From the NCBI GenBank assembly GCA_045599605.1, contig JAZRWE010000033.1:85687-149686 (forward strand): DNA of 64,000 nucleotides, given 5' to 3'. Source of the DNA: Thermoguttaceae bacterium. Lineage in GTDB: Bacteria > Planctomycetota > Planctomycetia > Pirellulales > Thermoguttaceae. Made by a program: the position numbers and the translations under genes. Every line of letters begins with the position of its first letter. The first letter of the stretch is position 1. Under the pieces are notes generated by a model, which did not search any database, was not told the DNA's origin, and saw only the letters and a program-made list of their open reading frames with translations. This document shows positions 1 through 42,375 of this stretch, piece after piece.

Positions 1-1730
1 TTGTTGAAGCGTTTGGCGAAGCTGAGACCGTTGAATTGGAAACTGAAACTTCCAACTCCGAATATGAAAGCGTCGACGATTCCGTCGAATTGGATTCGCT
101 GTTTGAAGAAGAGGCCGCCGACGAAGTCGAACTTGACGACGAGCTTGTCGGTTTTGAAGTAGTAGAAGACAAAGTTGAAGACGCCGTCGAACTTGACGAA
201 GTTTTCGAAGACGCCGAAAACGTTGAAAACGAATTAGAAGAACTTGCCGAATTGGACGCCGCTTTTGAGGAAATGGAAGCCAATGAGGAAGCTCTTGAAG
301 AAGAATATGAAGAAGTCGTAGAACTTGACGCTATTTTTGACGAAGTCGCCGACGTTGAAGAAGCTGTTGAAGAAGAAATTGAAGAAGTCGAAGAAGCGAT
401 CGACGACCTTAGCGACCTGATCGACGTTGACGAAGAACCGATCGCGGAAGAAGAAACGGAAGACGTCGCCGCGGCGATCGAAGAAGCTGTTGTTGAAGAA
501 GTCGCCGAGGAACTTGTCGACGAAGTTATTGAAGAACAAGACGACGAGATCGTCGACGAAGTTGCTGAAGAAGCCGACGTTGAAGAGTTGGTCGAGGAAG
601 TTGTTGAGGAACAAGCTGACGAAGTCGTCGACGAATTGGTTGAAGAAGCCGCCGTTGAAGAGTTGGTCGACGAAGTTATTGAAGAGCAAGCGGAAGAAGT
701 TGTTGAAGAACAAGTCGAAGAAGTCGCCGAGACTGTAGTTGAAGAAAGTTCCGACGTTGTCGAGACTGCCGACGTTGCGGAAGTTGAAGTTCAAGAATCG
801 AACGAAGTCAGTTCTATTGAAGATCTTGGTCGCGCCGTTTCGGGCAATCCTGAACCCCCGCTTGCCGAATCTGAGTGGGTCGCGGAAGAAAAGGTCGAGA
901 TCGAGAACGGCGACGTTTCCGAAGTCTCTTATCTTGAAGACCAATACTGGATCGTCATGGCGAACGGCAACGACTTCTTCTGCCAAGTTCTTGACGGCAA
1001 CGTTTGGCGTCAGGTTCCCGCGAGCGAATTTTTCGCGAGCGACAACGCCCAGCGCAGCACGATCGTTTGGGTCCACGGTTTCCAAACCGATATGTCCGGC
1101 GCGGCTCAAAGCGGTTATGTTTTGCGCAACGTCGTCGCGAACGCTCGCGCGGCTTCCGGCTCCGATCGCGCTTTCCGTCTCGTCGTCTGGAAGTGGAATT
1201 CTGAACGCAATACGATGGCGATCCGTTATGACGCGATGCAAAAAGAGCGTCTTGCCGATATCGAAGGCGTCGCGCTTGGCAGATTCGTCGGTATGATCGA
1301 CGGTTCTAACAACGTCTCGTTCATCGGCTTCAGCTTTGGCGCTCGCGTTACCGGTTCCGCTTTGCAGACCCTTGCGACTTGTCAAAGCAAATATATGAGC
1401 AATAAGACCGGCAAGATCTCGTTGGTCCTCGCTAGCGCCGCCTGCGACGCGTGGGCTTTCGACAACGGCGTTTACGCCAAGGGCGCTCGTATCCCGTCTT
1501 ATGTTTTGAACGTATACAACCCCGCCGACCGCGCGTTGCGTTTTTATCCCGCCGTTTCGGAAACGCGCTCCACCGCCCAAGGCGTTATGCCGATCTCCGG
1601 TAACGCGTTCGTCTCCGCGCAAGGTTCTACGTTCAATCTGAACGTTAGCGGTTCTCTTGGCAACGAACATTCGTTCCAACGCGAGATCCAATCGATTCCT
1701 TGCAACGTGATATTCAACGCTCTTTTCTGA
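1..1730 (+). CDS. 5'-partial protein with an extremely acidic E/V/D-rich tandem-repeat N-terminal region and a C-terminal alpha/beta-hydrolase-like domain (GxSxG nucleophile elbow GFSFG)
   Basis: The frame is open from the window edge with no stop upstream of the annotated TTG at 36, and ends at a stop at 1728-1730. Translated residues 1-260 are roughly 20-aa repeats of EELVDEV(I/V)EEQA(D/E)EVVDE. The C-terminal domain contains VWVHGF and GFSFGAR (G-x-S-x-G), which is typical of the serine hydrolase fold. Confidence 0.6.
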   Translation, partial: VEAFGEAETVELETETSNSEYESVDDSVELDSLFEEEAADEVELDDELVGFEVVEDKVEDAVELDEVFEDAENVENELEELAELDAAFEEMEANEEALEEEYEEVVELDAIFDEVADVEEAVEEEIEEVEEAIDDLSDLIDVDEEPIAEEETEDVAAAIEEAVVEEVAEELVDEVIEEQDDEIVDEVAEEADVEELVEEVVEEQADEVVDELVEEAAVEELVDEVIEEQAEEVVEEQVEEVAETVVEESSDVVETADVAEVEVQESNEVSSIEDLGRAVSGNPEPPLAESEWVAEEKVEIENGDVSEVSYLEDQYWIVMANGNDFFCQVLDGNVWRQVPASEFFASDNAQRSTIVWVHGFQTDMSGAAQSGYVLRNVVANARAASGSDRAFRLVVWKWNSERNTMAIRYDAMQKERLADIEGVALGRFVGMIDGSNNVSFIGFSFGARVTGSALQTLATCQSKYMSNKTGKISLVLASAACDAWAFDNGVYAKGARIPSYVLNVYNPADRALRFYPAVSETRSTAQGVMPISGNAFVSAQGSTFNLNVSGSLGNEHSFQREIQSIPCNVIFNALF

Positions 1731-1761
1731 GCCTTGAATAGACTCTCCTAAACTGCAAATA

Positions 1762-1812
1762 AAGAACGCCGTCGATGTTCCACGTGAAACATTGGCGGCG
1801 TTCTTTGTTTTT
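1762..1812 (+). terminator. rho-independent terminator (long imperfect hairpin AAGAACGCCG...CGGCGTTCTT followed by TGTTTTT)
   Basis: A 10-bp stem sits at 1762-1771 and 1796-1805. The loop carries an inner palindrome, and a T-run follows at 1806-1812. It lies directly after the stop of the upstream + strand CDS. Confidence 0.5.
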
Positions 1813-1889
1813 CAAGACTTGAAAAGGTGAATGTTTCACGTGAAACGTTATCGCGATTTCGAGCTAGCGGCGAGTGTTCCACGTGAAAC
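1777..1889. repeat. three copies of a 14-bp palindrome: GTTCCACGTGAAAC (1777-1790), GTTTCACGTGAAAC (1833-1846), GTTCCACGTGAAAC (1876-1889)
   Basis: Read directly from the sequence. The copies are spaced 56 and 43 bp apart in the 175-bp convergent intergenic region between the acidic-repeat hydrolase gene and the CPBP gene. The core is CACGTG. Confidence 0.8.
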
Positions 1890-1904
1890 GTATAAGGGAG
1901 GACG

Positions 1905-3212
1905 TTAGGATAACGACATGCAGAGGAATAGTAGACTTGTGAAGTTTAGTCCGACGTGCATGCCGACGACGGTGGGATAGCTGTGCGTTTTGAAAAAGAC
2001 GACGCCTTCCCATAGCGCGAAGACTAGTATCGGGACCGGGTCTACCACTACGTTGGGAAGAATGTTCTTCAACGCGTTTTGGGTGAGGTAGATCAACGGC
2101 AATGAGAAACAAAACAGGATCGCCCCGCGAGCGAATTCGCCAAGGTATTGACGGAAGCGTTCCTGAATTTTCTCGGCGAACGATCCAAAACCAAGATCTT
2201 GTTTATTGGCGCCAAGACTTCGTTTTAGTATCGCGAGGCCGATCGCGACGACAAAGATGTTGCCGATAACGCTGCTCACCGTGGTCTTGAATAACGTCGC
2301 GGACTTTTCCGGATCGTTGGGGTCTTCGGGAAGCGAGAAGTGAAGTATCGCAAAGATCAACGCCGGGGGAAGGACGACGCGGAGAAAGTTCTTGAGGTTT
2401 AAACTCAACGCCGGAAGGAGCGCGGGCTCTTGTATTTCTCCGTCGACAACGATCCTGTCTCTACCTTGGCGATCGTAAGTAAGTTTTTCAAACGCGCCTT
2501 GGAGCACGACTCGGAAGATCAATTCCTCGACGATAGGAGCAATAATGACGACCGAGAGCGTGAAGAGGATGAAAGCGATCCAGAAATACGGTTTTCCTTT
2601 CGCGCGTAGCAACATTCTCGCGAAGGGATGTTGCGTGGCTAGGTCGCGGTCTTCTTTGGATAATTCTTTGACGTCTTTCGCGTCGGCGGTAGTCGCGTTC
2701 TCTTTGGCTTCTTCTACCGCTGTTTCTTCGCTTGTCTGACGAGCGATATCTTCCGTAGAAGTTTCTTGGGCTTTGTCTTGTTCGTCGGCATTGTCGACGG
2801 TTTGTGCGATAGTTTCTTGCGCGACGCTTTCCTGCGCCTCGTTTGCCGATTCGGACGCGTCGTCGTTTTCTTGCGACTGCTCTATTTGAATTTCGTTGTT
2901 GGTTTCCGTTTGGACTACTTGCTGTTCGTGGAAGTTGGGCGTCAGGTAGCGTTCCAACGGCATAACGGCGATCACGCCGATCGTGGGGCCGACGATCGTG
3001 AAAAGTAAAAAGAATCCAAACGCGACTCCGATCGACCATGGGACGGGCTTATATAGTTGAGGTTTGGAATCGTCTTTGTGAAATATTGAGAAACCGTACC
3101 GCCAGTTGGTTACCGAGAGAAAGACGTAAGCGCATACGATCGCGGTCGGGATCAGGAACCATGGCGAGCGGGTATTGAATGAAAATTCAGCGAAGAGACA
3201 GGCGTTCAACAT
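1905..3212 (-). CDS. CPBP-family (CAAX protease-like / Abi) intramembrane metalloprotease-like membrane protein with an acidic Q/E-rich loop insertion
   Basis: It has multiple hydrophobic segments. It carries the EExxxR motif (VEELIFRV) and an FxxxH motif (FAILHF) characteristic of PF02517. The third motif, HxxxN, is not evident. Confidence 0.55.
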   Translation of the reverse strand: MLNACLFAEFSFNTRSPWFLIPTAIVCAYVFLSVTNWRYGFSIFHKDDSKPQLYKPVPWSIGVAFGFFLLFTIVGPTIGVIAVMPLERYLTPNFHEQQVVQTETNNEIQIEQSQENDDASESANEAQESVAQETIAQTVDNADEQDKAQETSTEDIARQTSEETAVEEAKENATTADAKDVKELSKEDRDLATQHPFARMLLRAKGKPYFWIAFILFTLSVVIIAPIVEELIFRVVLQGAFEKLTYDRQGRDRIVVDGEIQEPALLPALSLNLKNFLRVVLPPALIFAILHFSLPEDPNDPEKSATLFKTTVSSVIGNIFVVAIGLAILKRSLGANKQDLGFGSFAEKIQERFRQYLGEFARGAILFCFSLPLIYLTQNALKNILPNVVVDPVPILVFALWEGVVFFKTHSYPTVVGMHVGLNFTSLLFLCMSLS

Positions 3213-3310
3213 AGTTTTACAAGGAATGGTTTTGAGAAGTCTTTATAAAAACGCCGGGGTCGACATAGGCGCCTACCCCGGCGAACAGAAGAAAACGAGT
3301 TGTCGTTCGC

Positions 3311-4942: not shown

Positions 4943-5154
4943 AGTGGCTCCTTACATATATGGACGAGACGAAAGGTAGGGCGTCTCGAAATTTTTGATC
5001 TGAGCGTCAAACGTTTCCGGAACGCGTTTGACATTGCGTTAATAATTGTGGTCGAAAAGGGGGCGGGCGTCAAGCGTCGAAGAAGCGCGTTAGTGAAGTT
5101 TTATTCTAGAAATTGTGGATGAAAAGAAAAAAAGAAAATTTTTAAAATAACCCC

Positions 5155-5203: not shown

Positions 5204-5288
5204 GCGGGCGTGGCGGAATTGGTAGACGCGTCAGGTTGAGGGCCTGATGGGAGCTAATCCCGTGGAGGTTCGAGTCCTCTCGCCCGCA
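5204..5288 (+). tRNA. tRNA-Leu (anticodon GAG), class II with a long variable arm
   Basis: A 7-bp acceptor stem pairs GCGGGCG with CGCCCGC. The anticodon stem-loop is tCAGG-TTGAGGG-CCTGa with GAG at positions 34-36. The T-arm is GGAGG-TTCGAGT-CCTCT. Total length is about 85 nt. Confidence 0.85.
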
Positions 5289-5293
5289 CTGAG

Positions 5294-6060: not shown

Positions 6061-6273
6061 TAATCGAAAAAGCTTTCTTTTTTGGAAAAATAGGTAAAAA
6101 GTTTTAAATTCTCTTTTCTTTTGCATTAAAAAATGATATAATCGCGACGACTATCGCATTTATACGTAGTCAATATTAATAGTAGTCGCCAAGGGAAGGC
6201 GACTGCGAACCGTTGAGACTCCTACGGTCCCCCCTGCACTTTGAAGTAATAAACTATGAAGGAGACGGACGTT

Positions 6274-7575
6274 ATGAAACGCCTGGCTGGAACGACTTAT
6301 AATAAATCCGGTTTTACGTTGTTGGAATTGCTTATCGTATTGGCGATCTTGATCGTCATTATTGGTATTCTTGGAACGACGATCTGGGGTTCCTATAAAA
6401 AAGCGTTGATCCGCGCGGCTACGGTCCAAGTTCAGACGACGCTCCAAAACGCTTGCGAAGACTTCCATATCGAATTTCATCGTTATCCGAACCAACAAGA
6501 AGGACTTTACATTCTTGCCGACATGGATAATCCGGAAGCCCCCGCGATGAATATGATGGACGCCAATAATATGAATAATATGAACGGCGGCATGAACAAT
6601 ATGGGCATGGGCAACATGGGCATGACCGGCGATATGAACGGCAACATGGGCATGGGTAACATGGGCGCCGGCAACATGGGCATGGCCGGCGACATGAACG
6701 GCAACATGGGCATGGGCAACATGGGTATGGCCGGCGACATGAACGGCAACATGGGCATGGGCAACATGGGCATGGGCAATATGGGCATGACCGGCGACAT
6801 GAACGGTAACATGGGCATGGGCAACATGGGCATGGGGAACACCGGTATGGGCGACATGACCGGCATGAATAACAACATGACGGGCGTTTCTATGACCGGC
6901 GACATGAACAACATGAATAACATGAACAATATGCCCGGCATGAACAACATGAACAACATGAACGGCACGGCTAATTCGACTATGCCGATGAATGGTTCCA
7001 ACACGATCTACAAGCGTCCTAAGATCAGCGTCCCGCTCATCAAAGAAAAAGACCTCATCGACCCGTGGAACAATCCTTACAAGTACGAATACCCGACGAC
7101 CAAGGGTGACGGCAAGAAGCCCGCGATCTGGTCTTGCGGTCCTGACGGTATCGACGACAACGGCGACGGCGACGACGTCATCAACTGGGACGCCGAAGAT
7201 ACTACCGGTATGATGAACGCTCAGCGTCAACAAATGCAACAAAACAACATGAACAACATGAATAACATGACCGGCGACATGAACAACATGAACGGCATGA
7301 TGCAACCGAACATGACCGGCGACATGAATAACATGAACGGCATGATGCAACCGAACATGACCGGCGACATGAACAACATGAACGGCATGATGCAACCGAA
7401 CATGACCGGCGACATGAATAACATGAACGGCATGATGCAACCGAACAACATGAACGGCGGTATGGGCGGTATGAACGGCGGCATGATGCAACCGAATAAC
7501 ATGAACGGCGGCATGGGTGGTATGAACGGCGGCATGAACGGCATGGGCGGCGGTATGACCGGCGGCATGTTCTGA
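6274..7575 (+). CDS. GspG-like major pseudopilin (prepilin-type N-terminal cleavage/methylation domain) with about 250 aa of Met/Asn/Gly-rich repeat insertions
   Basis: The N-terminus reads MKRLAGTTYNKSGFTLLELLIVLAIL, the classic prepilin leader plus hydrophobic helix. The GspG core elements QQEGLY and DPWNNPYKYEYP...GKKPAIWSCGPDGIDDNGDGDDVINWD are present. A perfect SD (AAGGAG, 6259-6264) precedes the ATG at 6274. The ORF track's ATG at 6256 lies inside that SD. Confidence 0.75.
   Translation: MKRLAGTTYNKSGFTLLELLIVLAILIVIIGILGTTIWGSYKKALIRAATVQVQTTLQNACEDFHIEFHRYPNQQEGLYILADMDNPEAPAMNMMDANNMNNMNGGMNNMGMGNMGMTGDMNGNMGMGNMGAGNMGMAGDMNGNMGMGNMGMAGDMNGNMGMGNMGMGNMGMTGDMNGNMGMGNMGMGNTGMGDMTGMNNNMTGVSMTGDMNNMNNMNNMPGMNNMNNMNGTANSTMPMNGSNTIYKRPKISVPLIKEKDLIDPWNNPYKYEYPTTKGDGKKPAIWSCGPDGIDDNGDGDDVINWDAEDTTGMMNAQRQQMQQNNMNNMNNMTGDMNNMNGMMQPNMTGDMNNMNGMMQPNMTGDMNNMNGMMQPNMTGDMNNMNGMMQPNNMNGGMGGMNGGMMQPNNMNGGMGGMNGGMNGMGGGMTGGMF
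6590..7446 (+). repeat. in-frame tandem DNA repeats inside the GspG-like gene: about 42-bp units (GDMNGNMGMGNMGM) across 6590-6960, and four near-perfect 45-bp units (MTGDMNNMNGMMQPN) at 7267-7446
   Basis: Direct reading shows ATGACCGGCGACATGAA(C/T)AACATGAACGGCATGATGCAACCGAAC repeated four times head-to-tail at 7267-7446. Upstream, GGCAACATGGGCATG...GGCGACATGAACGGCAACATGGGCATGGGCAACATGGGCATG recurs several times. Confidence 0.85.
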
Positions 7576-7758: not shown

Positions 7759-9867
7759 ATGAGAAGAACCGCGTTCACGCTGCTTGAACTCTTGTTAGTT
7801 TTGGCGATCATCATCGCGATCGCCGGAATGGGAGTTATGGGGTACCAGCGTCAATACGCTCGTTCTCAATTCAAGAGCGGCGTGATACAGTTGCAGGTCG
7901 ATCTGACTTGCGCGCGCGTCTTGGCCATGCAGTCGGGCAACGCTTACGTCTTTCGCTATGTTCCCGGTTCTAACGTCTATGAGATCGCGCCTCTGAAAAC
8001 TCTGCAAGAAACTCTCTATCGCGTTAACGGCGATCTTGCCCAAGCGGACGGTTACGACTCTCTCGGAGGTTCGCTTACGACTTCCGTAGGTCCGACGCCT
8101 TCGCTCGGCGTTTCCGCGTTAGGCGCGAATCCTCTCGGTATGGATCTTCTAGGCGCGAACTCGTTGAACATGGGCGCGGGGACGACTTCTATCGGATTCG
8201 ATACCTCGGCGCTCGGCGCGTTGACCGGAACCGACCCCGCCGCCGCGATGATGGGGGCGATGATGGGCGTCAATATGGGATCGGGCGCCGCGACCGCGTA
8301 TACCGACGACCTTTTCTCGCCGGAGAATATTGCCGCCGATATGGCGGAGGCGATGAAAGCCAACGAACGCGACGCGCGCTTGGGCGCAACTAACGTCGAT
8401 CTGACCGGCGGTCTTGGCGGGAGTTTGAATTCGATAGCAGGCGTGCCCGCGCTTGCCTCTAATAATATGACGCCCGGACTTGGCGGTTCCGCGCTTGGCG
8501 GGACGGCGCTTGGCGGCGCCGCGATGATGAATGGCGCCGCGACTTCGGGCGTTGCGAGTCCTTACGGTTACGCGACCGATTACTCCGGTATGGGAGGCGA
8601 ATTTGGACTTGATGCGACGGGTATGACGACCGGACAAGTTCCGTCGGCGATACAGACGCTGCGCGATCTCAACGGTACCGAGAAATTACTTGCCGACGAA
8701 CACACGCTAATGTCGCGAGTCAATCTCGACGGTCTTATCATTCGTAAACAGATCGCCGGCGACGTCGTTTTCACTTTCATGCGCGTCTCCGATTCGACCT
8801 CGTCGCCGTTGCGCGCTCGACGTCCCGGCGCAGCGAAAAACGATTCGGCTAGTCCGATCACAGGCGCGAGCGAAGGCGAAGACCTCGGTTCCGCGCTCGG
8901 CGGATCGTTGCGCAGTATCCCAGTCGCTTCTAATAACGACGCCTTGGGCGGCGCGTTGAGCGCGATACCGGGAACGGATCCGACCGGTATGACCGACGCC
9001 GAGTCTTATGAGGAAGATCCGCTTGCGACGAGCATGTGGTCGGAACCGCTCGTGTTCTTTCCCAACGGTAAGACGTCGAGCGCCGTTCTCGGCTTCGCGA
9101 GTATGAACGAGTACTCGTTCTATTCCGAGATCTCGTTGCGCGGTATGACCGGCGTTTCGCGTATCTCCGCGATCTCCGCGGTTCCGCCGGAATACGACCC
9201 CGCGTCGACCGCGTTGACGCAAGAACAGCTCTTCCGACTCTATAATCCCGGCGTCGCGTATTCAGGAAACGACCCCGCAAACGCAAGCGCGACAGGCGGC
9301 GCGCTAAACTCGACGACTCCAAACGCCGCGCTTGGCGTGGACGCGCCCGACGTCGCGACGACGTCCGGATCGCTCGATACGCTTGGCGGACTTGGCGCGA
9401 GCGACTTGTCCGCTCCTTCTGTGAACTATGGTCGAGCGGGCGGAGGCGGTTACGGCTCTACGGAACGTCGCTCGGGCTACAGCTTCAACGCGACCGGCGG
9501 TCGCAACGGCGGCGCGCAAGGCATGCCCGACGCCGGCGGACTTGGCGTCGCGAACGGCGGTATGGACCAAGGCGCGTTAGGCGGAATGAACAACGCGAAC
9601 GGCGCTCTTGGCGGCATGAACGATCCGACAGGCGGAATGAACAACGCGACGGCCGGAGGCGGACTTGGCGGTTTGGGCGGCGCTAATAACGGCGCGCTTG
9701 GCGGTAACGACGATCCGTTTGGAGCAGTCGACGCGGCTATGGGCGGTCTTGGAAACGACGGCGGCGGTCTTGGCGGTAACGCGAACAACGCCGGCGGCGC
9801 GCTTGGCGGCGGCGAAAACGATCGCAACGACAGAAACGAACAAGATATTATGGGAGGCGGACTGTGA
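7759..9867 (+). CDS. GspH/FimT-like minor pseudopilin (prepilin N-terminus) with a long G/A/S/L/M/N-rich low-complexity C-terminal extension
   Basis: The N-terminus is MRRTAFTLLELLLVLAIIIAIAG. A GspH-like segment (GVIQLQVDLTCARVLAMQSGNAYVF) follows. The 702-aa protein is dominated by LGG/ALGG repeats, and an SD (GAGGT) precedes the ATG. Confidence 0.6.
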   Translation: MRRTAFTLLELLLVLAIIIAIAGMGVMGYQRQYARSQFKSGVIQLQVDLTCARVLAMQSGNAYVFRYVPGSNVYEIAPLKTLQETLYRVNGDLAQADGYDSLGGSLTTSVGPTPSLGVSALGANPLGMDLLGANSLNMGAGTTSIGFDTSALGALTGTDPAAAMMGAMMGVNMGSGAATAYTDDLFSPENIAADMAEAMKANERDARLGATNVDLTGGLGGSLNSIAGVPALASNNMTPGLGGSALGGTALGGAAMMNGAATSGVASPYGYATDYSGMGGEFGLDATGMTTGQVPSAIQTLRDLNGTEKLLADEHTLMSRVNLDGLIIRKQIAGDVVFTFMRVSDSTSSPLRARRPGAAKNDSASPITGASEGEDLGSALGGSLRSIPVASNNDALGGALSAIPGTDPTGMTDAESYEEDPLATSMWSEPLVFFPNGKTSSAVLGFASMNEYSFYSEISLRGMTGVSRISAISAVPPEYDPASTALTQEQLFRLYNPGVAYSGNDPANASATGGALNSTTPNAALGVDAPDVATTSGSLDTLGGLGASDLSAPSVNYGRAGGGGYGSTERRSGYSFNATGGRNGGAQGMPDAGGLGVANGGMDQGALGGMNNANGALGGMNDPTGGMNNATAGGGLGGLGGANNGALGGNDDPFGAVDAAMGGLGNDGGGLGGNANNAGGALGGGENDRNDRNEQDIMGGGL

Positions 9868-10652
9868 TCGTCAAACGAAGTTCCGGACTCTTGCGCCGCG
9901 AGCGCGAACGCGTTGCGGCGACACGTCGCGCGTTTACGTTGTTGGAGATCCTTGTCGTGCTCGCCGTCCTCGGCATGGGTATGGGGCTCATCACGCAGAT
10001 GACGCTCGTCGCGTCGCGTCACTCCGAACGCGTTGAAGAAGACACGTTCGTTCAACTTGCTTGCGAGAACATGATGAGTTCGATCCTTGCGGGGAACATG
10101 ACCGCGACGGTCGGCGTCTCTACTCCGATCCCCGACGCGCCAAATTGGGAAACGACGATCGAATTGCTCGACGGCCCGATCGAGAAACTTGTCGCGATAC
10201 GCATCACCGCGCAGCGATACGCGATCGAAGAGTACCCGTCGCAAGACGGTTCCGGGTTCCCTATTAGCGTGCGCGAACCGGAAGACGGTCGACGCTTCGT
10301 GATCAAGGAATACGCGCGTCGCGCCGACATAAAAACGCGCGTCGTCCAGACGAACGCTCAAGGCGAAATGACGGCGACCGACGGGACCGGCGAAACGTTC
10401 GCAAACGATCTCTTGGGTCAACAAAACGCGATGGGCGGCGGACTCGGTATGGACGCGCTCGACCCGTTTGCGGCGGTAGATCGCGGCATGGCGGCGACTA
10501 ACGGCGGTAATAATAACGTCGGCGGCGGTCTAGGCGGCGGAGTCGGCGGTCTAGGCGGCATGACCGGCGGCTTTGGCGGCGATAATATCAACGTCGGCGG
10601 CGGTCTTGGCGGCGGTAATCTCGATCGGGGATTCGGAAACCTTGGTTTCTGA
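9864..10652 (+). CDS. GspI-like minor pseudopilin (prepilin N-terminus), GTG start overlapping the upstream stop
   Basis: The sequence contains RRAFTLLEILVVLAVLGMG. A GTGA start/stop overlap with the previous gene is preceded by a GGGAGG SD. The C-terminus is G-rich GGGLGG repeats. Confidence 0.5.
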   Translation: MIVKRSSGLLRRERERVAATRRAFTLLEILVVLAVLGMGMGLITQMTLVASRHSERVEEDTFVQLACENMMSSILAGNMTATVGVSTPIPDAPNWETTIELLDGPIEKLVAIRITAQRYAIEEYPSQDGSGFPISVREPEDGRRFVIKEYARRADIKTRVVQTNAQGEMTATDGTGETFANDLLGQQNAMGGGLGMDALDPFAAVDRGMAATNGGNNNVGGGLGGGVGGLGGMTGGFGGDNINVGGGLGGGNLDRGFGNLGF

Positions 10653-10693: not shown

Positions 10694-13261
10694 ATGAAAA
10701 AGCAAGAAGACGATACGATGAGAACGAAATTGCGAGTCGAACGCGGCGCGGATCCAACGCGTCGTGGGTTTACTTTGCTTGAAATTCTCCTCGTCTTGGT
10801 GTTGATAGTCGTTCTACTTGGCGGTCTTGCTTCGTTAATACGCGTATTCACCAATAGTTATTTCTCAAATGAACGTCGCGTCGGTAGAGCGCAACTTGCG
10901 CGTTCGATATCGCAGATGCTTGAAGACGATCTTGGCGCCGCGATACAGGATCCAATACAAGCGGTCGCCGAAGACGCTAACCGCCAATTTATCCGCCACT
11001 TCGGACTTCGCGGGGACGCGCGGTCGTTACAGATCGACGTCGTGCAACCTAGCCTGTTTGCGAAGACGGCCACCGTCGACGAGAATATCCGCGTTCAATC
11101 CGGCGGGGATAAATCCGCAGCGTCGCGACAAGCGCCGGAATTGAAAACGATCTTCTACGAATTTGTTCCGATCAACGCAAGCGAAGTTATTGAAGGACAA
11201 CAAAATACGACAAACGGAACCGTCGCCGCGCAAGGCGAGGATCTTGGTTCTTCGCTGACCGGCTCGCTTTCCTCGACTTCGCCCGACTCGGCGTTGTCTA
11301 ACGTTAACGGTGACGTTCTCGCCGACTCGTCTTCTTTCCGCGATCCAACGCTTCCGCTCGCGCAGAAATACGGCTTGTCGCGTCGCGAACTCGATTTTGA
11401 GACGCCGGAAGAAGATACGGAAGAAACGGACCAACTAAGCGCGTACGATCTTGGCGCCTCTATCGATCCTGAGACGGGGGCGGCGACCTCGACGTTGAGC
11501 GGTTCGCTGACGTCCGCGCCGACGACTCAGAACTCTACGCTGACGTCGACCGATCCTAGCGTCAACGCCGCGCTCGGTATCGTCGACGCGACGCAATACG
11601 TTTACAAAGAACCGCTTACCGCCGTACAGATCGCGATGGATTCAGACGACGGCACGACGTGGGCGCCGGAAGTGCTCGATTGCCGTTTCAGCTACTTTGA
11701 CGGCGAAAAATGGCGCGATTCGTGGGATAGTATTCAAGATAAAGGACTTCCGATCGCGATCAAGGTCGAATTGAAGATGGCGCCGCTCGACGACGTCGAT
11801 CTCTATCGCAGCGCGCCGATCTTCGCGATGTTGCCCGTAGCGCCCGACCTTGAAACGCTTTCAAAACTAGCGACCGCGGGAGACCAACTTGTCGATACCG
11901 ACGAAGTTAACGTAAGTCGTTTGGCAGGCTCGCTTACTCGTACCGCGAAAGAAAAAGGCGAACCCGTCGACGTGTTCAATTCGTATCGGCCTCTTGCCGC
12001 TATTCGCGCCGCGATGGAAGGCGTGGTCACCAATCGCGACGGCGCTTCGACGTTCGCGGAAGTCGCCGCGTCCGCTATGCTGTTGCGTGCCAATGAGTTA
12101 GAAACGCAAAACGCGAGTTCGCCCGGCGATATGGAAGGCGGTCTGGCGTTCAGTAGCGGACTTGGCGGTTCGCTCAACGGTTCTTCTACGTCGACGGACG
12201 GCGCGTTAGGGGGCGGCTTGACTTCCGGAACCGCTAATACCGCCAACGTCAATACGGGCGACCCGAGTCTGGACCCGTCGATCGCGATCGTGCAGGAAAT
12301 GATGGCGAACGGCGCCGTATTTAACGAGGCGGGTATCTGCGTCGACTTCTCTAACGACGGTTCTTATGTAACGCTCGAACAGATCGCCGAGGAGATCGGC
12401 GTGACGGAACCCAATGTTTACGAAGTGATCGTCTATCTCCCGACGACTCCGCTCAGCCGCGCGACGACGGTCCAACGCCGCGTCGCGACGACGGTGCGCC
12501 AAGGCAATGTCTCGCAACGACGTAATACGAACGCCGCCGGCGGAAATAGTCGCGATCGTCGCGCGCAAGGTCAGAATCCTTACGCCACCGGTAGAGCGCG
12601 ACAATCGCAACCTCGTGAAAGAACGGAACGCACAAGAAACGAGCGCACGGCGCAAGATCGTCAACGCGCGGATCGGCAGACGGCGGAACGCGGACGCGCC
12701 GATCGTCAAGCGGTCGACCGCGGCGGCCCCGTCGAGCGACAAGCAAATAATCGTCAAGTTAACGAACGCCAAGGAGGCGAAGCGCGAACCGCAAATACGC
12801 GCGAAACGCGAGAACGCGTCGGACGCAACGGCGGTTGGACCGACGATAGCCCCAATACGGTCAACTACGGGAATCGTAACGCGAATAATAGAGCGCAAGT
12901 AGGAGATACTAACGGCGTCGGCGGTTTCGGTAACGCCGCCGCGGATCTCGGCGGTCTTGGCGATCGTAACGCGGTAACGCCGTCTCTTGGTCAAGGGGGC
13001 GGGCTCGCGGGCGGACTTGCCGGCAACGGCGGCGCCACGCAGATTCAGACCGATCCGTTTGCTATCGTCGACCAACAGATGAACGCCGCCTCGTCTGCGC
13101 CGTTTGCGTCGCAAAACGCTGATATGGATATTTTTGGCGGAATGACTACGCCGGGGTTGATCGAGACGCCTAACGGAACGAACACGGTCGCTTCTCCGAC
13201 CGCGCCCGCCGCGCCGCAACGCCAAGGTCAGCAACAAACGTGGATCCGCGGTAAGAAATAA
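10694..13261 (+). CDS. GspJ-like minor pseudopilin (prepilin N-terminus) with large S/T/G-rich and Arg/Gln/Glu-rich low-complexity regions
   Basis: The sequence contains RRGFTLLEILLVLVLIVVLLGG followed by a GspJ-like helix region. The protein is 855 aa, far larger than canonical GspJ. An alternative start is at 10718. Confidence 0.5.
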   Translation: MKKQEDDTMRTKLRVERGADPTRRGFTLLEILLVLVLIVVLLGGLASLIRVFTNSYFSNERRVGRAQLARSISQMLEDDLGAAIQDPIQAVAEDANRQFIRHFGLRGDARSLQIDVVQPSLFAKTATVDENIRVQSGGDKSAASRQAPELKTIFYEFVPINASEVIEGQQNTTNGTVAAQGEDLGSSLTGSLSSTSPDSALSNVNGDVLADSSSFRDPTLPLAQKYGLSRRELDFETPEEDTEETDQLSAYDLGASIDPETGAATSTLSGSLTSAPTTQNSTLTSTDPSVNAALGIVDATQYVYKEPLTAVQIAMDSDDGTTWAPEVLDCRFSYFDGEKWRDSWDSIQDKGLPIAIKVELKMAPLDDVDLYRSAPIFAMLPVAPDLETLSKLATAGDQLVDTDEVNVSRLAGSLTRTAKEKGEPVDVFNSYRPLAAIRAAMEGVVTNRDGASTFAEVAASAMLLRANELETQNASSPGDMEGGLAFSSGLGGSLNGSSTSTDGALGGGLTSGTANTANVNTGDPSLDPSIAIVQEMMANGAVFNEAGICVDFSNDGSYVTLEQIAEEIGVTEPNVYEVIVYLPTTPLSRATTVQRRVATTVRQGNVSQRRNTNAAGGNSRDRRAQGQNPYATGRARQSQPRERTERTRNERTAQDRQRADRQTAERGRADRQAVDRGGPVERQANNRQVNERQGGEARTANTRETRERVGRNGGWTDDSPNTVNYGNRNANNRAQVGDTNGVGGFGNAAADLGGLGDRNAVTPSLGQGGGLAGGLAGNGGATQIQTDPFAIVDQQMNAASSAPFASQNADMDIFGGMTTPGLIETPNGTNTVASPTAPAAPQRQGQQQTWIRGKK

Positions 13262-15323: not shown

Positions 15324-15815
15324 ATGGCGGATAAAAATAAGAATAAGAAGAAGGAAGACGACGGTATCGAGCGCGTCGTCAGCGAGAATCGTAAAGCGCG
15401 TCACGATTACGATATTCTCGAAACGCTCGAATGCGGTATCGCGCTTGTCGGTAGCGAGGTCAAGAGCCTTCGCAGCGGCACGGTCTCGTTGTCGGAATCC
15501 TATGCGCGCGTTCGTGATAACGAAGTATTTTGGGTCAATAGCGACATTCCGGAATACATCGACGCCAATCGTTTCAATCATAAGCGTAAGCGCGATCGTA
15601 AGTTGTTGATGCATAAACGCGAAGTGCAGCGTTTCGCGAAACGCGCTATGGAAAAAGGGTTGACGCTCGTGCCGTTGAAACTCTATTTCCGCGGCGGACG
15701 CGCGAAGTTGCTCCTTGGACTCTGTAAAGGCAAGCAAGATTACGATAAGCGTCAAACGCTGAAAAAACAAGACGTTGAACGCGGTCTTCGCCAGATGAAG
15801 ATGTTCCGTAGATGA
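15324..15815 (+). CDS. smpB: SsrA-binding protein
   Basis: It carries conserved SmpB motifs NRKARHDYDIL, GIALVGSEVKSLR and FWV. The C-terminal tail is basic. Confidence 0.9.
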   Translation: MADKNKNKKKEDDGIERVVSENRKARHDYDILETLECGIALVGSEVKSLRSGTVSLSESYARVRDNEVFWVNSDIPEYIDANRFNHKRKRDRKLLMHKREVQRFAKRAMEKGLTLVPLKLYFRGGRAKLLLGLCKGKQDYDKRQTLKKQDVERGLRQMKMFRR

Positions 15816-40845: not shown

Positions 40846-42375
40846 TCAGTCCCACCACCAAGCGGTAACGTCGTTGTTTTCAGCTTGGGCGCGTTTGGCT
40901 TCGACCGTACCTTTTTCGTCGTACTTCATGTGTTCTTGATCGAGCGCGACTTGGGGTTCGATGGAGACGCCGCCGCCGGTCGGGTAGGAGACCATGTTGT
41001 TACTACGACGAACGGTGTTGACCGCGGTTTGCGCGAATTCAACGGCGTTGAGGTTTTCAGTTTGGTATTGCGCTTCGTCGGCGAAGAATTCGGCGTTCCA
41101 GTTGGTCTTGCCGTAAACGTTTTCCTTTTGGAGGTAAGCGGCGACGATGGACATATCGATCAAGTTACGGAGGTTAGCGTAGACCGGAACTTGGTCGGCG
41201 ATCTTTTCGAATTTTTGCGTGAAGCTCTTAGCGTAAGCGCGAGTCGCGGGGTTGCCCTTGCCCTTGTTGGCGGAACGAGTACCGTCGGCGGCGACGAGTT
41301 CGTCTTCGCCAAGGAGGTTGACGCCGTTGCCAACGAGTTGCATCGCGTTGCCGTCTTCGGTCTCAACGACGCAATCGTAGTTGGGTTGGAAGTACCAACG
41401 AACGAGGGCGTTGGAAGCGTTGTTGCGCGGGTTAGATTTATCGACGTAGGTAACGAGCTTGACGGGGGATTCTTCAAGACCGATACCGATGAGTTTCATA
41501 CGATAGTCGGCGGCGACGAGGGTCACGGCGAAGTTGGTCTTGGGGGAGACGCCCCAGACGGTGACGTTTTGGAGCCCGAGCGCTTCGCGGATACCGGCGG
41601 CGTATTCGACGCAGTCGGCGTCGTTAGCGACGTTCGGTTGAGCGGCGGTGTTCAAGTAGGATTGCATCGAGCGGAGACCTTCTTCGGTCGGGTCGATGGA
41701 GCAGCCGACTAAGCTCGCGCCTTTGCCGTTGGCGGGATAAGCGCGCATGGCGACGACGAGGTCTTCAAGGCGAAGAGTCGGACGACCGCTCTTCATACCG
41801 ACGGTGGCGCCTTCAGCGCCGACGGTCCAACCTTCCGCGGGACCGGCGATAACGACGTCGCCCGTTTCGGGATAAACGAAGACGTTTTCAATACGAGTAA
41901 GACCGGCAAGATTCGCCATTTCGTCGGAAACGACGCCGTTGTTGGCTTGGATCGCGGCTTCAAGGCGATTCAAGGAAACTTTACGCATCTTGCTGACGGC
42001 GCGCATTTCGCTCGGGACGCTGCGATAGGCTTCTTCGCGGATCGAAGCGAGAAGACCGTCGTCCATGGAGACGCGTTGCAAAACGCCGTTAGGATCGACG
42101 ACGACGCCGGAACCGTAGGAGGAACCGTTGCCGCTGTTACCGCCGTTGTTGTTATTGTTATTATTGTTGTTGTTACGGCCGCCGTTGTTATTGTTGTTAT
42201 TATTGTTGTTGTTGTTGTTACGGCCGCCGTTATTATTATTATTATTATTATTATTATTGTTGTTGTAGTTCTGTCCGAAAGCCGTCGACATAGGCGAATT
42301 CGACATAGGCGCGGAAAAGAGAACGATCAGCGCCAGGATCGCGCTTAAACGAAGGACGAAATTACTCCGACTCAT
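40846..42375 (-). CDS. secreted protein of unknown function with an N-terminal poly-Asn/GGR tract
   Basis: A signal peptide (LSAILALIVLFSAPMSNSPMSTAFGQ) is followed by N14-GGR-N14-GGR-N10-GGN and then a 400-aa globular region. No family was recognised. Confidence 0.7.
   Translation of the reverse strand: MSRSNFVLRLSAILALIVLFSAPMSNSPMSTAFGQNYNNNNNNNNNNNNGGRNNNNNNNNNNNNGGRNNNNNNNNNNGGNSGNGSSYGSGVVVDPNGVLQRVSMDDGLLASIREEAYRSVPSEMRAVSKMRKVSLNRLEAAIQANNGVVSDEMANLAGLTRIENVFVYPETGDVVIAGPAEGWTVGAEGATVGMKSGRPTLRLEDLVVAMRAYPANGKGASLVGCSIDPTEEGLRSMQSYLNTAAQPNVANDADCVEYAAGIREALGLQNVTVWGVSPKTNFAVTLVAADYRMKLIGIGLEESPVKLVTYVDKSNPRNNASNALVRWYFQPNYDCVVETEDGNAMQLVGNGVNLLGEDELVAADGTRSANKGKGNPATRAYAKSFTQKFEKIADQVPVYANLRNLIDMSIVAAYLQKENVYGKTNWNAEFFADEAQYQTENLNAVEFAQTAVNTVRRSNNMVSYPTGGGVSIEPQVALDQEHMKYDEKGTVEAKRAQAENNDVTAWWWD
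42146..42266. repeat. trinucleotide microsatellite (GTT/ATT on the + strand, equal to AAC/AAT codons on the coding strand), about 120 bp, interrupted twice by ACGGCCGCC
   Basis: Read directly from the sequence (gttgttgttattgttattattgttgttgtt ACGGCC gccgttgttattgttgttattattgttgttgttgttgtt ACGGCCGCC gttattattattattattattattattattgttgttgta). It encodes the poly-Asn tract. Confidence 0.85.

Follow-up and report, generated by a model that had tools for sequence, protein, structure and literature searches.

A cluster of three putative parS sites between convergent genes in a Thermoguttaceae-like planctomycete

Organization of the locus

Near its left end, the window examined here (the whole 64-kb stretch of DNA that was analyzed) carries a pair of convergent genes, an acidic-repeat open reading frame (ORF) that ends at 1730 on the + strand and a CPBP/Rce1-like ORF that occupies 1905-3212 on the - strand, with three short palindromes lying between the two 3' ends. 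This convergent intergenic placement agrees with that given in a preliminary description of the sequence. The features considered below are as follows.

1..1730, + strand: 3' part of the convergent partner gene, which encodes an acidic protein with Glu/Asp/Val-rich repeats; its frame is open at the left edge of the window
1760..1813, + strand: intrinsic terminator of the acidic-repeat gene, from a terminator scan; includes parS-1
1776..1791, no strand: putative parS-1, TGTTCCACGTGAAACA, identical to the 16-bp consensus; supplies the loop and the upper part of the stem in the terminator hairpin
1832..1847, no strand: putative parS-2, TGTTTCACGTGAAACG, matching the consensus at 15 of 16 bases, with a perfectly palindromic 14-bp core
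1875..1890, no strand: putative parS-3, TGTTCCACGTGAAACG, 15/16 to the consensus; starts 15 bp past the CPBP stop codon
1905..3212, - strand: gene for a CPBP/Rce1-like intramembrane protease (PF02517), whose 3' end is the conserved landmark that bounds the putative parS zone
6256-7575, + strand: gene

Homologs of the CPBP gene carry the name CPBP family intramembrane metalloprotease and come from Thermoguttaceae, and its synteny is kept in relatives, as is the convergent acidic-repeat homolog, the protein product of which has a conserved C-terminal domain with no Pfam match. The surrounding genes are of chromosomal type (SmpB, ProRS, GAPDH, MutY-like, HemD, and tRNA-Leu), and the Pfam content of the window includes DUF1559/SBP_bac_10, DUF1598, DUF1583_N, HZS_alpha, and many N_methyl prepilins. 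Judged from this gene content and from the names of homologs, the host is a planctomycete. A Firmicute such as Paenibacillus, which the parS match described below and a GC content of 54.5% might suggest, is rejected on the same evidence.

Identity of the palindromic motif

The sequence GTT[C/T]CACGTGAAAC occurs three times in the window, at 1777-1790, 1833-1846, and 1876-1889, with start-to-start distances of 56 and 43 bp, which reproduces the coordinates and spacings first reported. The outer two 14-mers read GTTCCACGTGAAAC and the middle one reads GTTTCACGTGAAAC. The earlier designation of a perfect 14-bp palindrome holds for the middle copy alone; the outer two are imperfect because a C at position 4 leaves one pair asymmetric (reverse complement GTTTCACGTGGAAC), a T/C variation that the same description had rightly noted. 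Its claim that the copies exceed chance was borne out, with three exact copies observed versus 0.00 expected in 100 dinucleotide-preserving shuffles. No further copy was found elsewhere in the 64-kb window, even when up to three mismatches to the 16-mer were allowed. The flanks of the three copies are unrelated to each other and only the 16-mer is common to them. At the level of RNA families, no Rfam family was assigned to the region (best E-values of ~0.09, far below gathering scores).

The addition of one base on each side of the 14-mer yields a sequence that corresponds to parS, the 16-bp binding site of ParB, with zero, one, and one mismatches to the consensus TGTTNCACGTGAAACA documented for Firmicutes, Actinobacteria, and Proteobacteria (PMC7022226). 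All three 16-mers fall within 115 bp. Each of the six half-sites reads GTT[T/C]CAC and thus has a G at position 1 and an A at position 6, the two positions that separate parS (G1, A6) from the sites bound by Noc (PMC7383237). The generic suggestion made previously, that the array could be bound by a dimeric DNA-binding protein, is supported by the match to parS, the identity of the motif as parS having gone unrecognized.

Conservation in related loci

Twenty-one distinct orthologous loci, the window included, were compared, with parS called at no more than two mismatches. Fifteen of the 21 have a putative parS site 10-250 bp past the stop codon of the CPBP ortholog, even though flanking proteins are just 30-45% identical and GC contents range from 43 to 62%. 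The preliminary description had held that absence of the palindromes from the orthologous locus of relatives would count against its reading; they are present in most. The number of copies at this position is one in most of these loci (L005, L006, and L012-L021), two in L003, three in the window, and five in L002. Loci L008 and L011 have none at the CPBP 3' end, yet each has three sites at +4.9 to +9.2 kb; a site at the exact CPBP 3' position is also missing from L001/L010, L004/L007, and L009. A second site is present at +4.6 to +5.8 kb in L005, L015, L016, and L018. These distal sites fall in divergent intergenic regions on the side that lies past the left edge of the window. In relatives, the motif is confined to a single syntenic zone of ~9-10 kb that extends from the CPBP gene in one direction, and the upstream flanks are devoid of it. 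The synteny of the locus is stable across many Thermoguttaceae MAGs.

At finer scale, TGTTTCACGTGAAACG is an invariant 16-mer at the orthologous position in 12 relatives. In an alignment of the spacer from nine loci, mean column identity was 45% and the sole invariant blocks were CGATGTTTCACGTGAAACGTC and the terminator stem, with parS and its flanks forming an invariant island of 21 columns. In the single-copy clade, a distance of ~80-150 bp separates the invariant island at parS from that at the terminator. In L002, the repeat unit is tandemly duplicated together with its spacer (TRF period of 45), giving spacings of 43, 45, 45, and 44 bp; the spacing in L008 is 43 bp.

The window thus holds 16-bp inverted repeats that match TGTTNCACGTGAAACA with G1 and A6 in each half-site, the copies are few, non-random, and restricted to one zone in the window and in the loci of relatives, and the exact site is conserved at the orthologous position. 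On these grounds, the three palindromes are very likely chromosomal parS, that is, centromere-like loading sites of a ParABS system, in a Thermoguttaceae-like planctomycete.

Relationship to ParA, ParB, and the replication origin

Genes for ParA or ParB were not found in the 64-kb window (Pfam and motif scan), nor did a motif scan of the 21 related loci find any less than 10 kb from the site; a cognate ParB encoded in the host genome is therefore assumed. This assumption draws its support from a preprint stating that certain Planctomycetes encode the ParA and ParB Pfam families on the chromosome (bioRxiv 10.1101/2024.01.22.576637). A metagenome scan for three motif cores at 38-64 bp spacing recovered at least 120 loci, and tight arrays of the motif are thus common in metagenomes. 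Among the matches listed, a ParA-type KGGxGKT motif was present in 59 of 120 and ParB box II in 30 of 120. In four of the array loci (L078, L136, L076, and L069), Pfam searches identified ParB_N plus HTH_ParB and ParA/AAA_31 proteins that directly adjoin the arrays. This association with parAB counts in favor of the parS assignment, as does the chromosomal gene context of the window sites. Similar triple arrays were also found on 19 viral contigs. When all window proteins were searched by tblastn against 139 metagenome and viral array loci, no matches were obtained, and none of these arrays is from a close relative.

GC skew is positive throughout the window, which weakly suggests an origin to the left, in the direction in which the putative parS zone continues. 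An origin-type switch in GC skew was not found in the window or in the loci of relatives, and dnaA and dnaN were not seen.

Alternative explanations

Of the alternatives to chromosomal parS, the one that fares best, though it is improbable, is that the palindromes are an operator or array for another regulator, either a ParB-family paralog (KorB-, Noc-, or VirB-like) that works as a transcription or nucleoid-occlusion factor, or an unrelated dimer that binds CACGTG, and not for the ParB of segregation. Regulatory paralogs within the ParB family do exist (PMC10653881; Noc, PMC7383237), and the lack of a visible parAB nearby would fit such a role. Against this, the sites are flanked by gene 3' ends on both sides, the scan of 1400-2300 gave no promoter-like site, and the 16-mer is the exact chromosomal consensus. 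The operator considered in the preliminary description is unsupported because the sites, besides being located between 3' ends, are conserved independently of any promoter. As regards Noc in particular, Noc-binding sites (NBS) are related palindromes of 14-16 bp bound by a ParB paralog, but they differ from the window sites at half-site positions 1 and 6 and are scattered throughout the genome, and Noc itself occurs only in Firmicutes (PMC7383237). Assignment to NBS is ruled out by the parS-type bases and the planctomycete host.

It is less probable still that the palindromes act purely in RNA, as bidirectional terminators or 3' stabilizing hairpins, and that their resemblance to parS is coincidental. 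The first copy is embedded in a strong terminator: the terminator scan identified a hairpin at 1760-1807 (20 pairs, 8-nt loop CCACGTGA) with TTTTT after it, and the RNA is predicted to fold with -32.9 kcal/mol (z = -8.9) on the + strand, confirming the earlier assignment of this copy to the apex of a terminator hairpin. The predicted fold on the - strand is -24.7 kcal/mol, and three G-U wobble pairs account for the greater stability of the terminator as + strand RNA. A homologous hairpin with a decayed parS center at its apex is present in L002, L004/L007, and L008, and the hairpin itself is therefore under selection. The GC-rich stem-loop and T-run of an intrinsic terminator are, however, features of copy 1 and not of copies 2 and 3, where a T-run is lacking and the fold is weak (-9.2 and -4.4 kcal/mol, z of -2.1 and -0.3); the previously proposed role as a protein-bound terminator is accordingly compatible with copy 1, in the terminator loop, but not with the other two. 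Moreover, the 16-mer is invariant in sequence, whereas an RNA hairpin would allow compensatory changes, parS and terminator are separate islands in the single-copy clade, and the distal sites of relatives are in divergent intergenic regions.

Two further explanations are weaker again. That the palindromes are REP-like or MITE-like dispersed repeats, whether served by a REP-associated transposase or by no specific protein at all, is hardly credible: short GC-containing palindromes that lie several together between convergent genes, and the tandem duplication of unit and spacer in L002, are what such elements might produce, but the window has a single cluster with unrelated flanks, the motif of relatives keeps to a ~10 kb syntenic zone and is missing from upstream flanks, and the sequence is that of the pan-bacterial parS, which adjoins parAB in unrelated contigs. 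Wide dispersal is wanting in the 64 kb and in the loci of relatives, a conserved extended unit is wanting among the window copies, and the dispersed-repeat proposal of the preliminary description did not survive. Equally doubtful is a relic or active centromere from the partition module of an integrated plasmid or prophage, as opposed to one belonging to the host chromosome itself: centromeres built as tight tandem arrays are a typical plasmid feature, F sopC with its 12 43-bp repeats being one example (PMC3177203), and viral contigs bear similar triple arrays, but the flanks are conserved and of housekeeping type with synteny that is stable across MAGs, no integrase, rep, or par genes were found near the locus, and GC content is unremarkable.

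Predicted function of the putative chromosomal parS cluster

As chromosomal parS, the sites can be considered in light of established ParB biology. By analogy, each 16-bp site would be recognized by a ParB dimer via its helix-turn-helix domains, after which ParB would bind CTP, shut into a clamp, and slide to flanking DNA. The three neighboring sites may jointly nucleate a dense ParB partition complex that would be moved by ParA and that, as in many bacteria, could load SMC condensin. The presence of three sites in 115 bp may provide redundancy and faster local loading. The cluster is probably the part within the window of a conserved zone of multiple parS sites that runs on past the left end. 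At the RNA level, copy 1 also forms the apex of the acidic-repeat gene's intrinsic terminator.

The parS motif and its function are textbook knowledge, and here they constitute an expected feature in a little-studied lineage. To our knowledge, Planctomycetes divide without FtsZ. A literature search found no description of chromosomal ParB-parS in Planctomycetes, and the sites reported here give an uncultured planctomycete family a concrete candidate centromere that is conserved. The candidate site could anchor the mapping of origins and centromeres in MAGs and could guide ParB ChIP or fluorescent tagging should a relative be brought into culture.

Comparison with characterized centromeres

The window sites share with the Spo0J/ParB sites of Bacillus subtilis the same 16-bp inverted repeat (zero to one mismatch) and the G1/A6 half-sites, and they resemble chromosomal parS in general in their small copy number, their restriction to one chromosomal zone, and their retention across relatives. 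The parS sites of B. subtilis are mostly inside genes. They are also isolated and kilobases apart (PMC5815017), unlike the three in 115 bp of the window, all of which are intergenic. A further difference from B. subtilis is that parAB is lacking within 62 kb on one side in the window and within 10 kb on the other side in relatives.

A closer parallel in arrangement is offered by Caulobacter crescentus, in which parS sites are clustered and redundant with the five strongest within 5 kb (PMC5815017), and by Corynebacterium glutamicum, which has ten parS within 35 kb, nine of them intergenic (PMC7083940). A proposed benefit of such clustering is a higher local density of ParB and greater robustness (PMC5815017, PMC7083940). 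Like these organisms, Thermoguttaceae have several redundant consensus sites in a short zone (~9 kb, in which 1-5 sites occupy the first position and 1-3 others follow). Unlike them, they belong to another phylum and the packing in the window is tighter (43-56 bp), that in L002 having arisen from the 45-bp tandem duplication. The distance between parS and oriC is ~8 kb in C. crescentus and 73 kb in C. glutamicum. Growth of parS clusters next to an existing site has been proposed from Tn-seq in Caulobacter (PMC5815017), and the range of one, two, three, and five copies at a single orthologous spot in Thermoguttaceae offers a natural example of it.

In layout, the array is also reminiscent of sopC of the F plasmid, in which each of the 12 direct 43-bp repeats contains a 16-bp inverted repeat bound by SopB (PMC3177203); both have 16-bp dyads arranged head-to-tail at ~43-45 bp (43 bp in the window, with the L002 and L008 spacings given above). 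The two nevertheless differ in binding sequence and in ParB subfamily, and sopC is carried by a plasmid rather than a chromosome. The resemblance is an analogy of layout only and not one of membership. As a sopC-type tandem centromere the window array was rejected, given that it has no tandem repeat at the sequence level, has a chromosomal context, and has no adjoining par genes.

A more far-reaching scenario, which is speculative and rather unlikely as a whole, is that the chromosomal centromere in Thermoguttaceae of gut and environmental origin is a parS zone that is unlinked from parAB and undergoes rapid birth-and-death, in which amplification would yield sopC-like arrays of 43-45 bp (one to five copies) while older copies decay, and in which the ancestral copy in the terminator loop would couple ParB loading to termination at the convergent gene pair. 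Such coupling might take the form of a ParB roadblock that strengthens termination, or of convergent transcription that confines or evicts ParB clamps.

Identity of the palindromic sites

Three copies of a palindromic 14-mer lie within the 174-bp spacer that separates two convergent genes:

1777-1790, copy 1, GTTCCACGTGAAAC
1833-1846, copy 2, GTTTCACGTGAAAC
1876-1889, copy 3, GTTCCACGTGAAAC
1-1730, + strand, ORF of an acidic Glu/Asp/Val-repeat protein, the convergent partner, open at the left edge of the window
1905-3212, - strand, ORF of a CPBP/Rce1-like intramembrane protease (CPBP gene)

The convergent intergenic position and the distances of 56 and 43 bp between copy starts agree with the preliminary description, as does its view that the cluster exceeds chance: zero exact copies occurred in 100 dinucleotide-preserving shuffles of the window, against the three present. 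Its description of the copies as perfect palindromes holds for the middle copy only, because a C at position 4 breaks one symmetric pair in the outer two. No Rfam family matched the copy region.

With one base added on each side, the 16-mers of copies 1, 2, and 3 (TGTTCCACGTGAAACA, TGTTTCACGTGAAACG, and TGTTCCACGTGAAACG) have 0, 1, and 1 mismatches, respectively, to TGTTNCACGTGAAACA. The latter is chromosomal parS, a highly conserved sequence to which ParB/Spo0J binds; near-identical consensus sequences are described for Bacillus, Corynebacterium, Mycobacterium, Caulobacter, Hyphomonas, Burkholderia, Myxococcus, and Pseudomonas (PMC7022226). The site bound by Noc, a ParB paralogue restricted to Firmicutes, has bases other than those of parS at half-site positions 1 and 6 (PMC7383237), whereas all six half-sites here carry the parS-type G1 and A6. 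The three copies are very probably chromosomal parS centromere sites. The feature is genuine, strongly non-random, and conserved, and its explanation is ordinary, namely a known type of site found in an uncultured and understudied lineage. Mildly interesting are the arrays resembling sopC (the F-plasmid centromere of direct 43-bp repeats) that arise through copy-number turnover, and the terminator loop that contains parS.

The terminator and its flanking gene

As had been noted, copy 1 supplies the loop and the upper part of the stem in a 20-pair hairpin (1760-1807) that is followed by TTTTT. The predicted fold energy is -32.9 kcal/mol (z = -8.9) as + strand RNA and -24.7 kcal/mol as - strand RNA, the latter being weaker because three G-U wobble pairs turn into mismatches. 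The stronger + strand fold and the T-run behind it identify the hairpin as the intrinsic terminator of the acidic-repeat gene. A role at the RNA level alone would suit copy 1 but not copies 2 and 3, which lack a T-run and fold weakly in isolation (-9.2 and -4.4 kcal/mol); it thus fits only one of the three sites.

The acidic-repeat proteins are 590-945 aa long and combine an extended acidic Glu/Asp/Val repeat region with a C-terminal domain of ~270 aa that is conserved but has no Pfam match. Across Thermoguttaceae, the gene keeps its synteny with the CPBP gene and parS, with homologues in related loci at:

L002, 2058-4643
L005, 2926-5499
L018, 11503-14340

Conservation in relatives

Related loci (n = 21, of which 20 are distinct since L004 and L007 are the same contig; 21 distinct with the window) were drawn from CPBP gene homologues and one scan of species-representative genomes. 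Gene order is kept (dehydrogenase, CDP-alcohol phosphatidyltransferase, CPBP protease, then the convergent acidic-protein homologue), with only 30-45% identity among the CPBP proteins and GC contents of 43-62%. Absence of the palindromes from the orthologous locus of relatives, which had been considered, is not what most loci show: parS (≤2 mismatches, 10-250 bp past the CPBP stop codon) is present in 15 of 21 distinct loci, the window counted. Copy number there is 1 in L005, L006, and L012-L021, 2 in L003 (whose contig ends shortly beyond), 3 in the window, and 5 in L002. L008 and L011 lack parS near the CPBP stop but have three sites apiece at +4.9 to +9.2 kb, and a second site occurs at +4.6 to +5.8 kb in L005, L015, L016, and L018, between a DUF1844 gene and a 5-formyltetrahydrofolate cyclo-ligase gene.

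Every placeable parS site in the relatives and the window is intergenic. On the upstream side of CPBP, no parS was found in the relatives or in the right-hand 62 kb of the window, except for one 2-mismatch match (L021). From this one-sided distribution, the window cluster would therefore be the edge of a multi-site zone, a conserved parS zone of ~9 kb whose remainder is predicted to lie beyond window coordinate 1. Across the aligned spacers of nine single-copy loci, where columns average 45% identity, two blocks alone are invariant: the 21-bp CGATGTTTCACGTGAAACGTC and the stem of the terminator. Such a pattern is a classic phylogenetic footprint, and it points to selection acting on the precise DNA sequence and not on a hairpin alone.

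An operator for some other regulator is improbable: the copies sit between two 3' ends and carry exactly the specificity bases of parS, and no promoter-like site was found in 1400-2300. The single cluster in the 64-kb window, the unrelated flanks, and the confinement of sites to the zone all contradict a REP-like dispersed element.

Turnover of sites

The five copies of L002 make up a genuine tandem repeat (period 45, 3.6 copies, 77% matches), and the window copies have nothing in common beyond the 16-mer. Short spacings group at 43-45 bp (43 in the window; 43, 45, 45, and 44 in L002; 43 in L008), with 56 bp in the window and 64 bp in L003 outside this range. Within the sub-clade closest to the window, the acidic-protein gene retains its terminator hairpin, and the following hairpins have a decayed parS apex that keeps the GTTyC...GrAAC stem parts and has lost the CACGTG centre:

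L002, 1975-2030 (aacgttccagagaaacatt)
L004/L007, ~3255-3300
L008, ~4985-5035

These remnants suggest that an ancestral parS-in-terminator may have stayed intact in the window lineage only. In the rumen Thermoguttaceae MAGs L001 (6339-7118) and L010, a DpnI-like restriction endonuclease gene (PF06044/PF17726) directly downstream of the CPBP gene takes the exact position of the other relatives' parS; the sole remaining parS-like site is the 2-mismatch CGTTTCACGTCGAACA, 2.1 kb further on. Tandem duplication, decayed apices, and the DpnI-like insertion thus point to local duplication as the source of new sites and to decay or insertion as the way in which sites are lost, all inside a stable zone. 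Such turnover fits the proposal that tolerance of new parS sites is limited to the neighbourhood of an existing cluster (PMC5815017).

Arrays elsewhere and proposed function

When metagenomes were scanned for triplets of parS cores spaced 38-64 bp apart, at least 120 stretches matched, as did 19 viral contigs; the loci listed include no relatives of the window organism. Tight arrays are not rare, hence the layout in the window is unexceptional. Among the matches listed, arrays have 3-10 copies at GC contents of ~20 to 74%, and the ParA-type KGGxGKT Walker A motif and the ParB box II motif occur in 59 and 30 of 120 short metagenome loci, respectively. Proteins with ParB_N and HTH_ParB and ParA proteins (AAA_31/CbiA) adjoin arrays in L078, L136, L076, and L069 according to Pfam, and the array architecture is thereby independently tied to ParABS. 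Tight tandem arrays of 5-10 consensus parS, regularly spaced with periods of ~38-62 bp, are found widely across metagenomes and on viral-classed contigs as well, for example:

L078, 1694-2226
L068, 893-1123
L157, 6138-6446

Many tight arrays among the matches listed directly adjoin parA-parB, and their spacing histogram peaks near 38-39, 45, and 55 bp, biased by the 38-64 bp search window.

As is established for ParB, its dimers nucleate at parS and require CTP for escape and sliding onto adjacent DNA (PMC7053999, PMC8367383). The partition complex is segregated by ParA and recruits SMC (PMC7083940), and where sites are clustered, ParB reaches a higher local density and the system gains robustness (PMC5815017, PMC7083940). 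The three window sites could serve as a redundant, high-flux loading point at which ParB would nucleate and then slide to build the partition complex; between convergent 3' ends, the nucleation complex would cover no promoter.

Chromosomal setting

The context of the window (GC 54.5%) is chromosomal, and a plasmid or phage setting is discounted. Planctomycetota-type proteins include DUF1559/SBP_bac_10 with N-methyl prepilin motifs, DUF1598, DUF1583_N, 3-keto-disaccharide hydrolase domains, and an HZS_alpha-domain cytochrome protein; housekeeping genes encode SmpB, a MutY-like glycosylase, GAPDH, prolyl-tRNA synthetase, HemD, and tRNA-Leu, and CPBP gene homologues are annotated to Thermoguttaceae MAGs. 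The stable synteny with housekeeping genes contradicts an integrated mobile element. Neither a ParA nor a ParB gene was found within the 64-kb window; chromosomal ParB in Planctomycetes has support at the phylum level only (bioRxiv 10.1101/2024.01.22.576637), and no description of a planctomycete chromosomal parS was found in the literature searched. GC skew is positive over the entire window, so no origin lies within it; by the usual leading-strand rule, an origin might tentatively be placed to the left.

The sole RNA gene found in the window is tRNA-Leu(GAG) at 5204-5289; no tmRNA gene was detected across the 64 kb (Rfam, ARAGORN), though SmpB is encoded at 15324-15815 (+). A prepilin-type gene at 6256-7575 (+), for which simple longest-ORF calling gives the wrong strand (6160-7491), has the N-terminal methylation motif GFTLLELLIVLAIL and a body of mostly Met/Asn/Gly-rich low complexity, with four near-identical 15-aa repeats (NMTGDMNNMNGMMQP) encoded by 45-nt DNA repeats at 7264-7443. 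It leads a pseudopilin-like run (7759-9867, 9864-10652, and 10694-13261) in which Gly/Asn/Leu-rich tails also occur. An AT-rich (TTG/TTA)n triplet run at 42131-42286, in the 5' part of the DUF1598 gene (40846-42375, - strand), encodes an N-terminal low-complexity segment rich in Asn.
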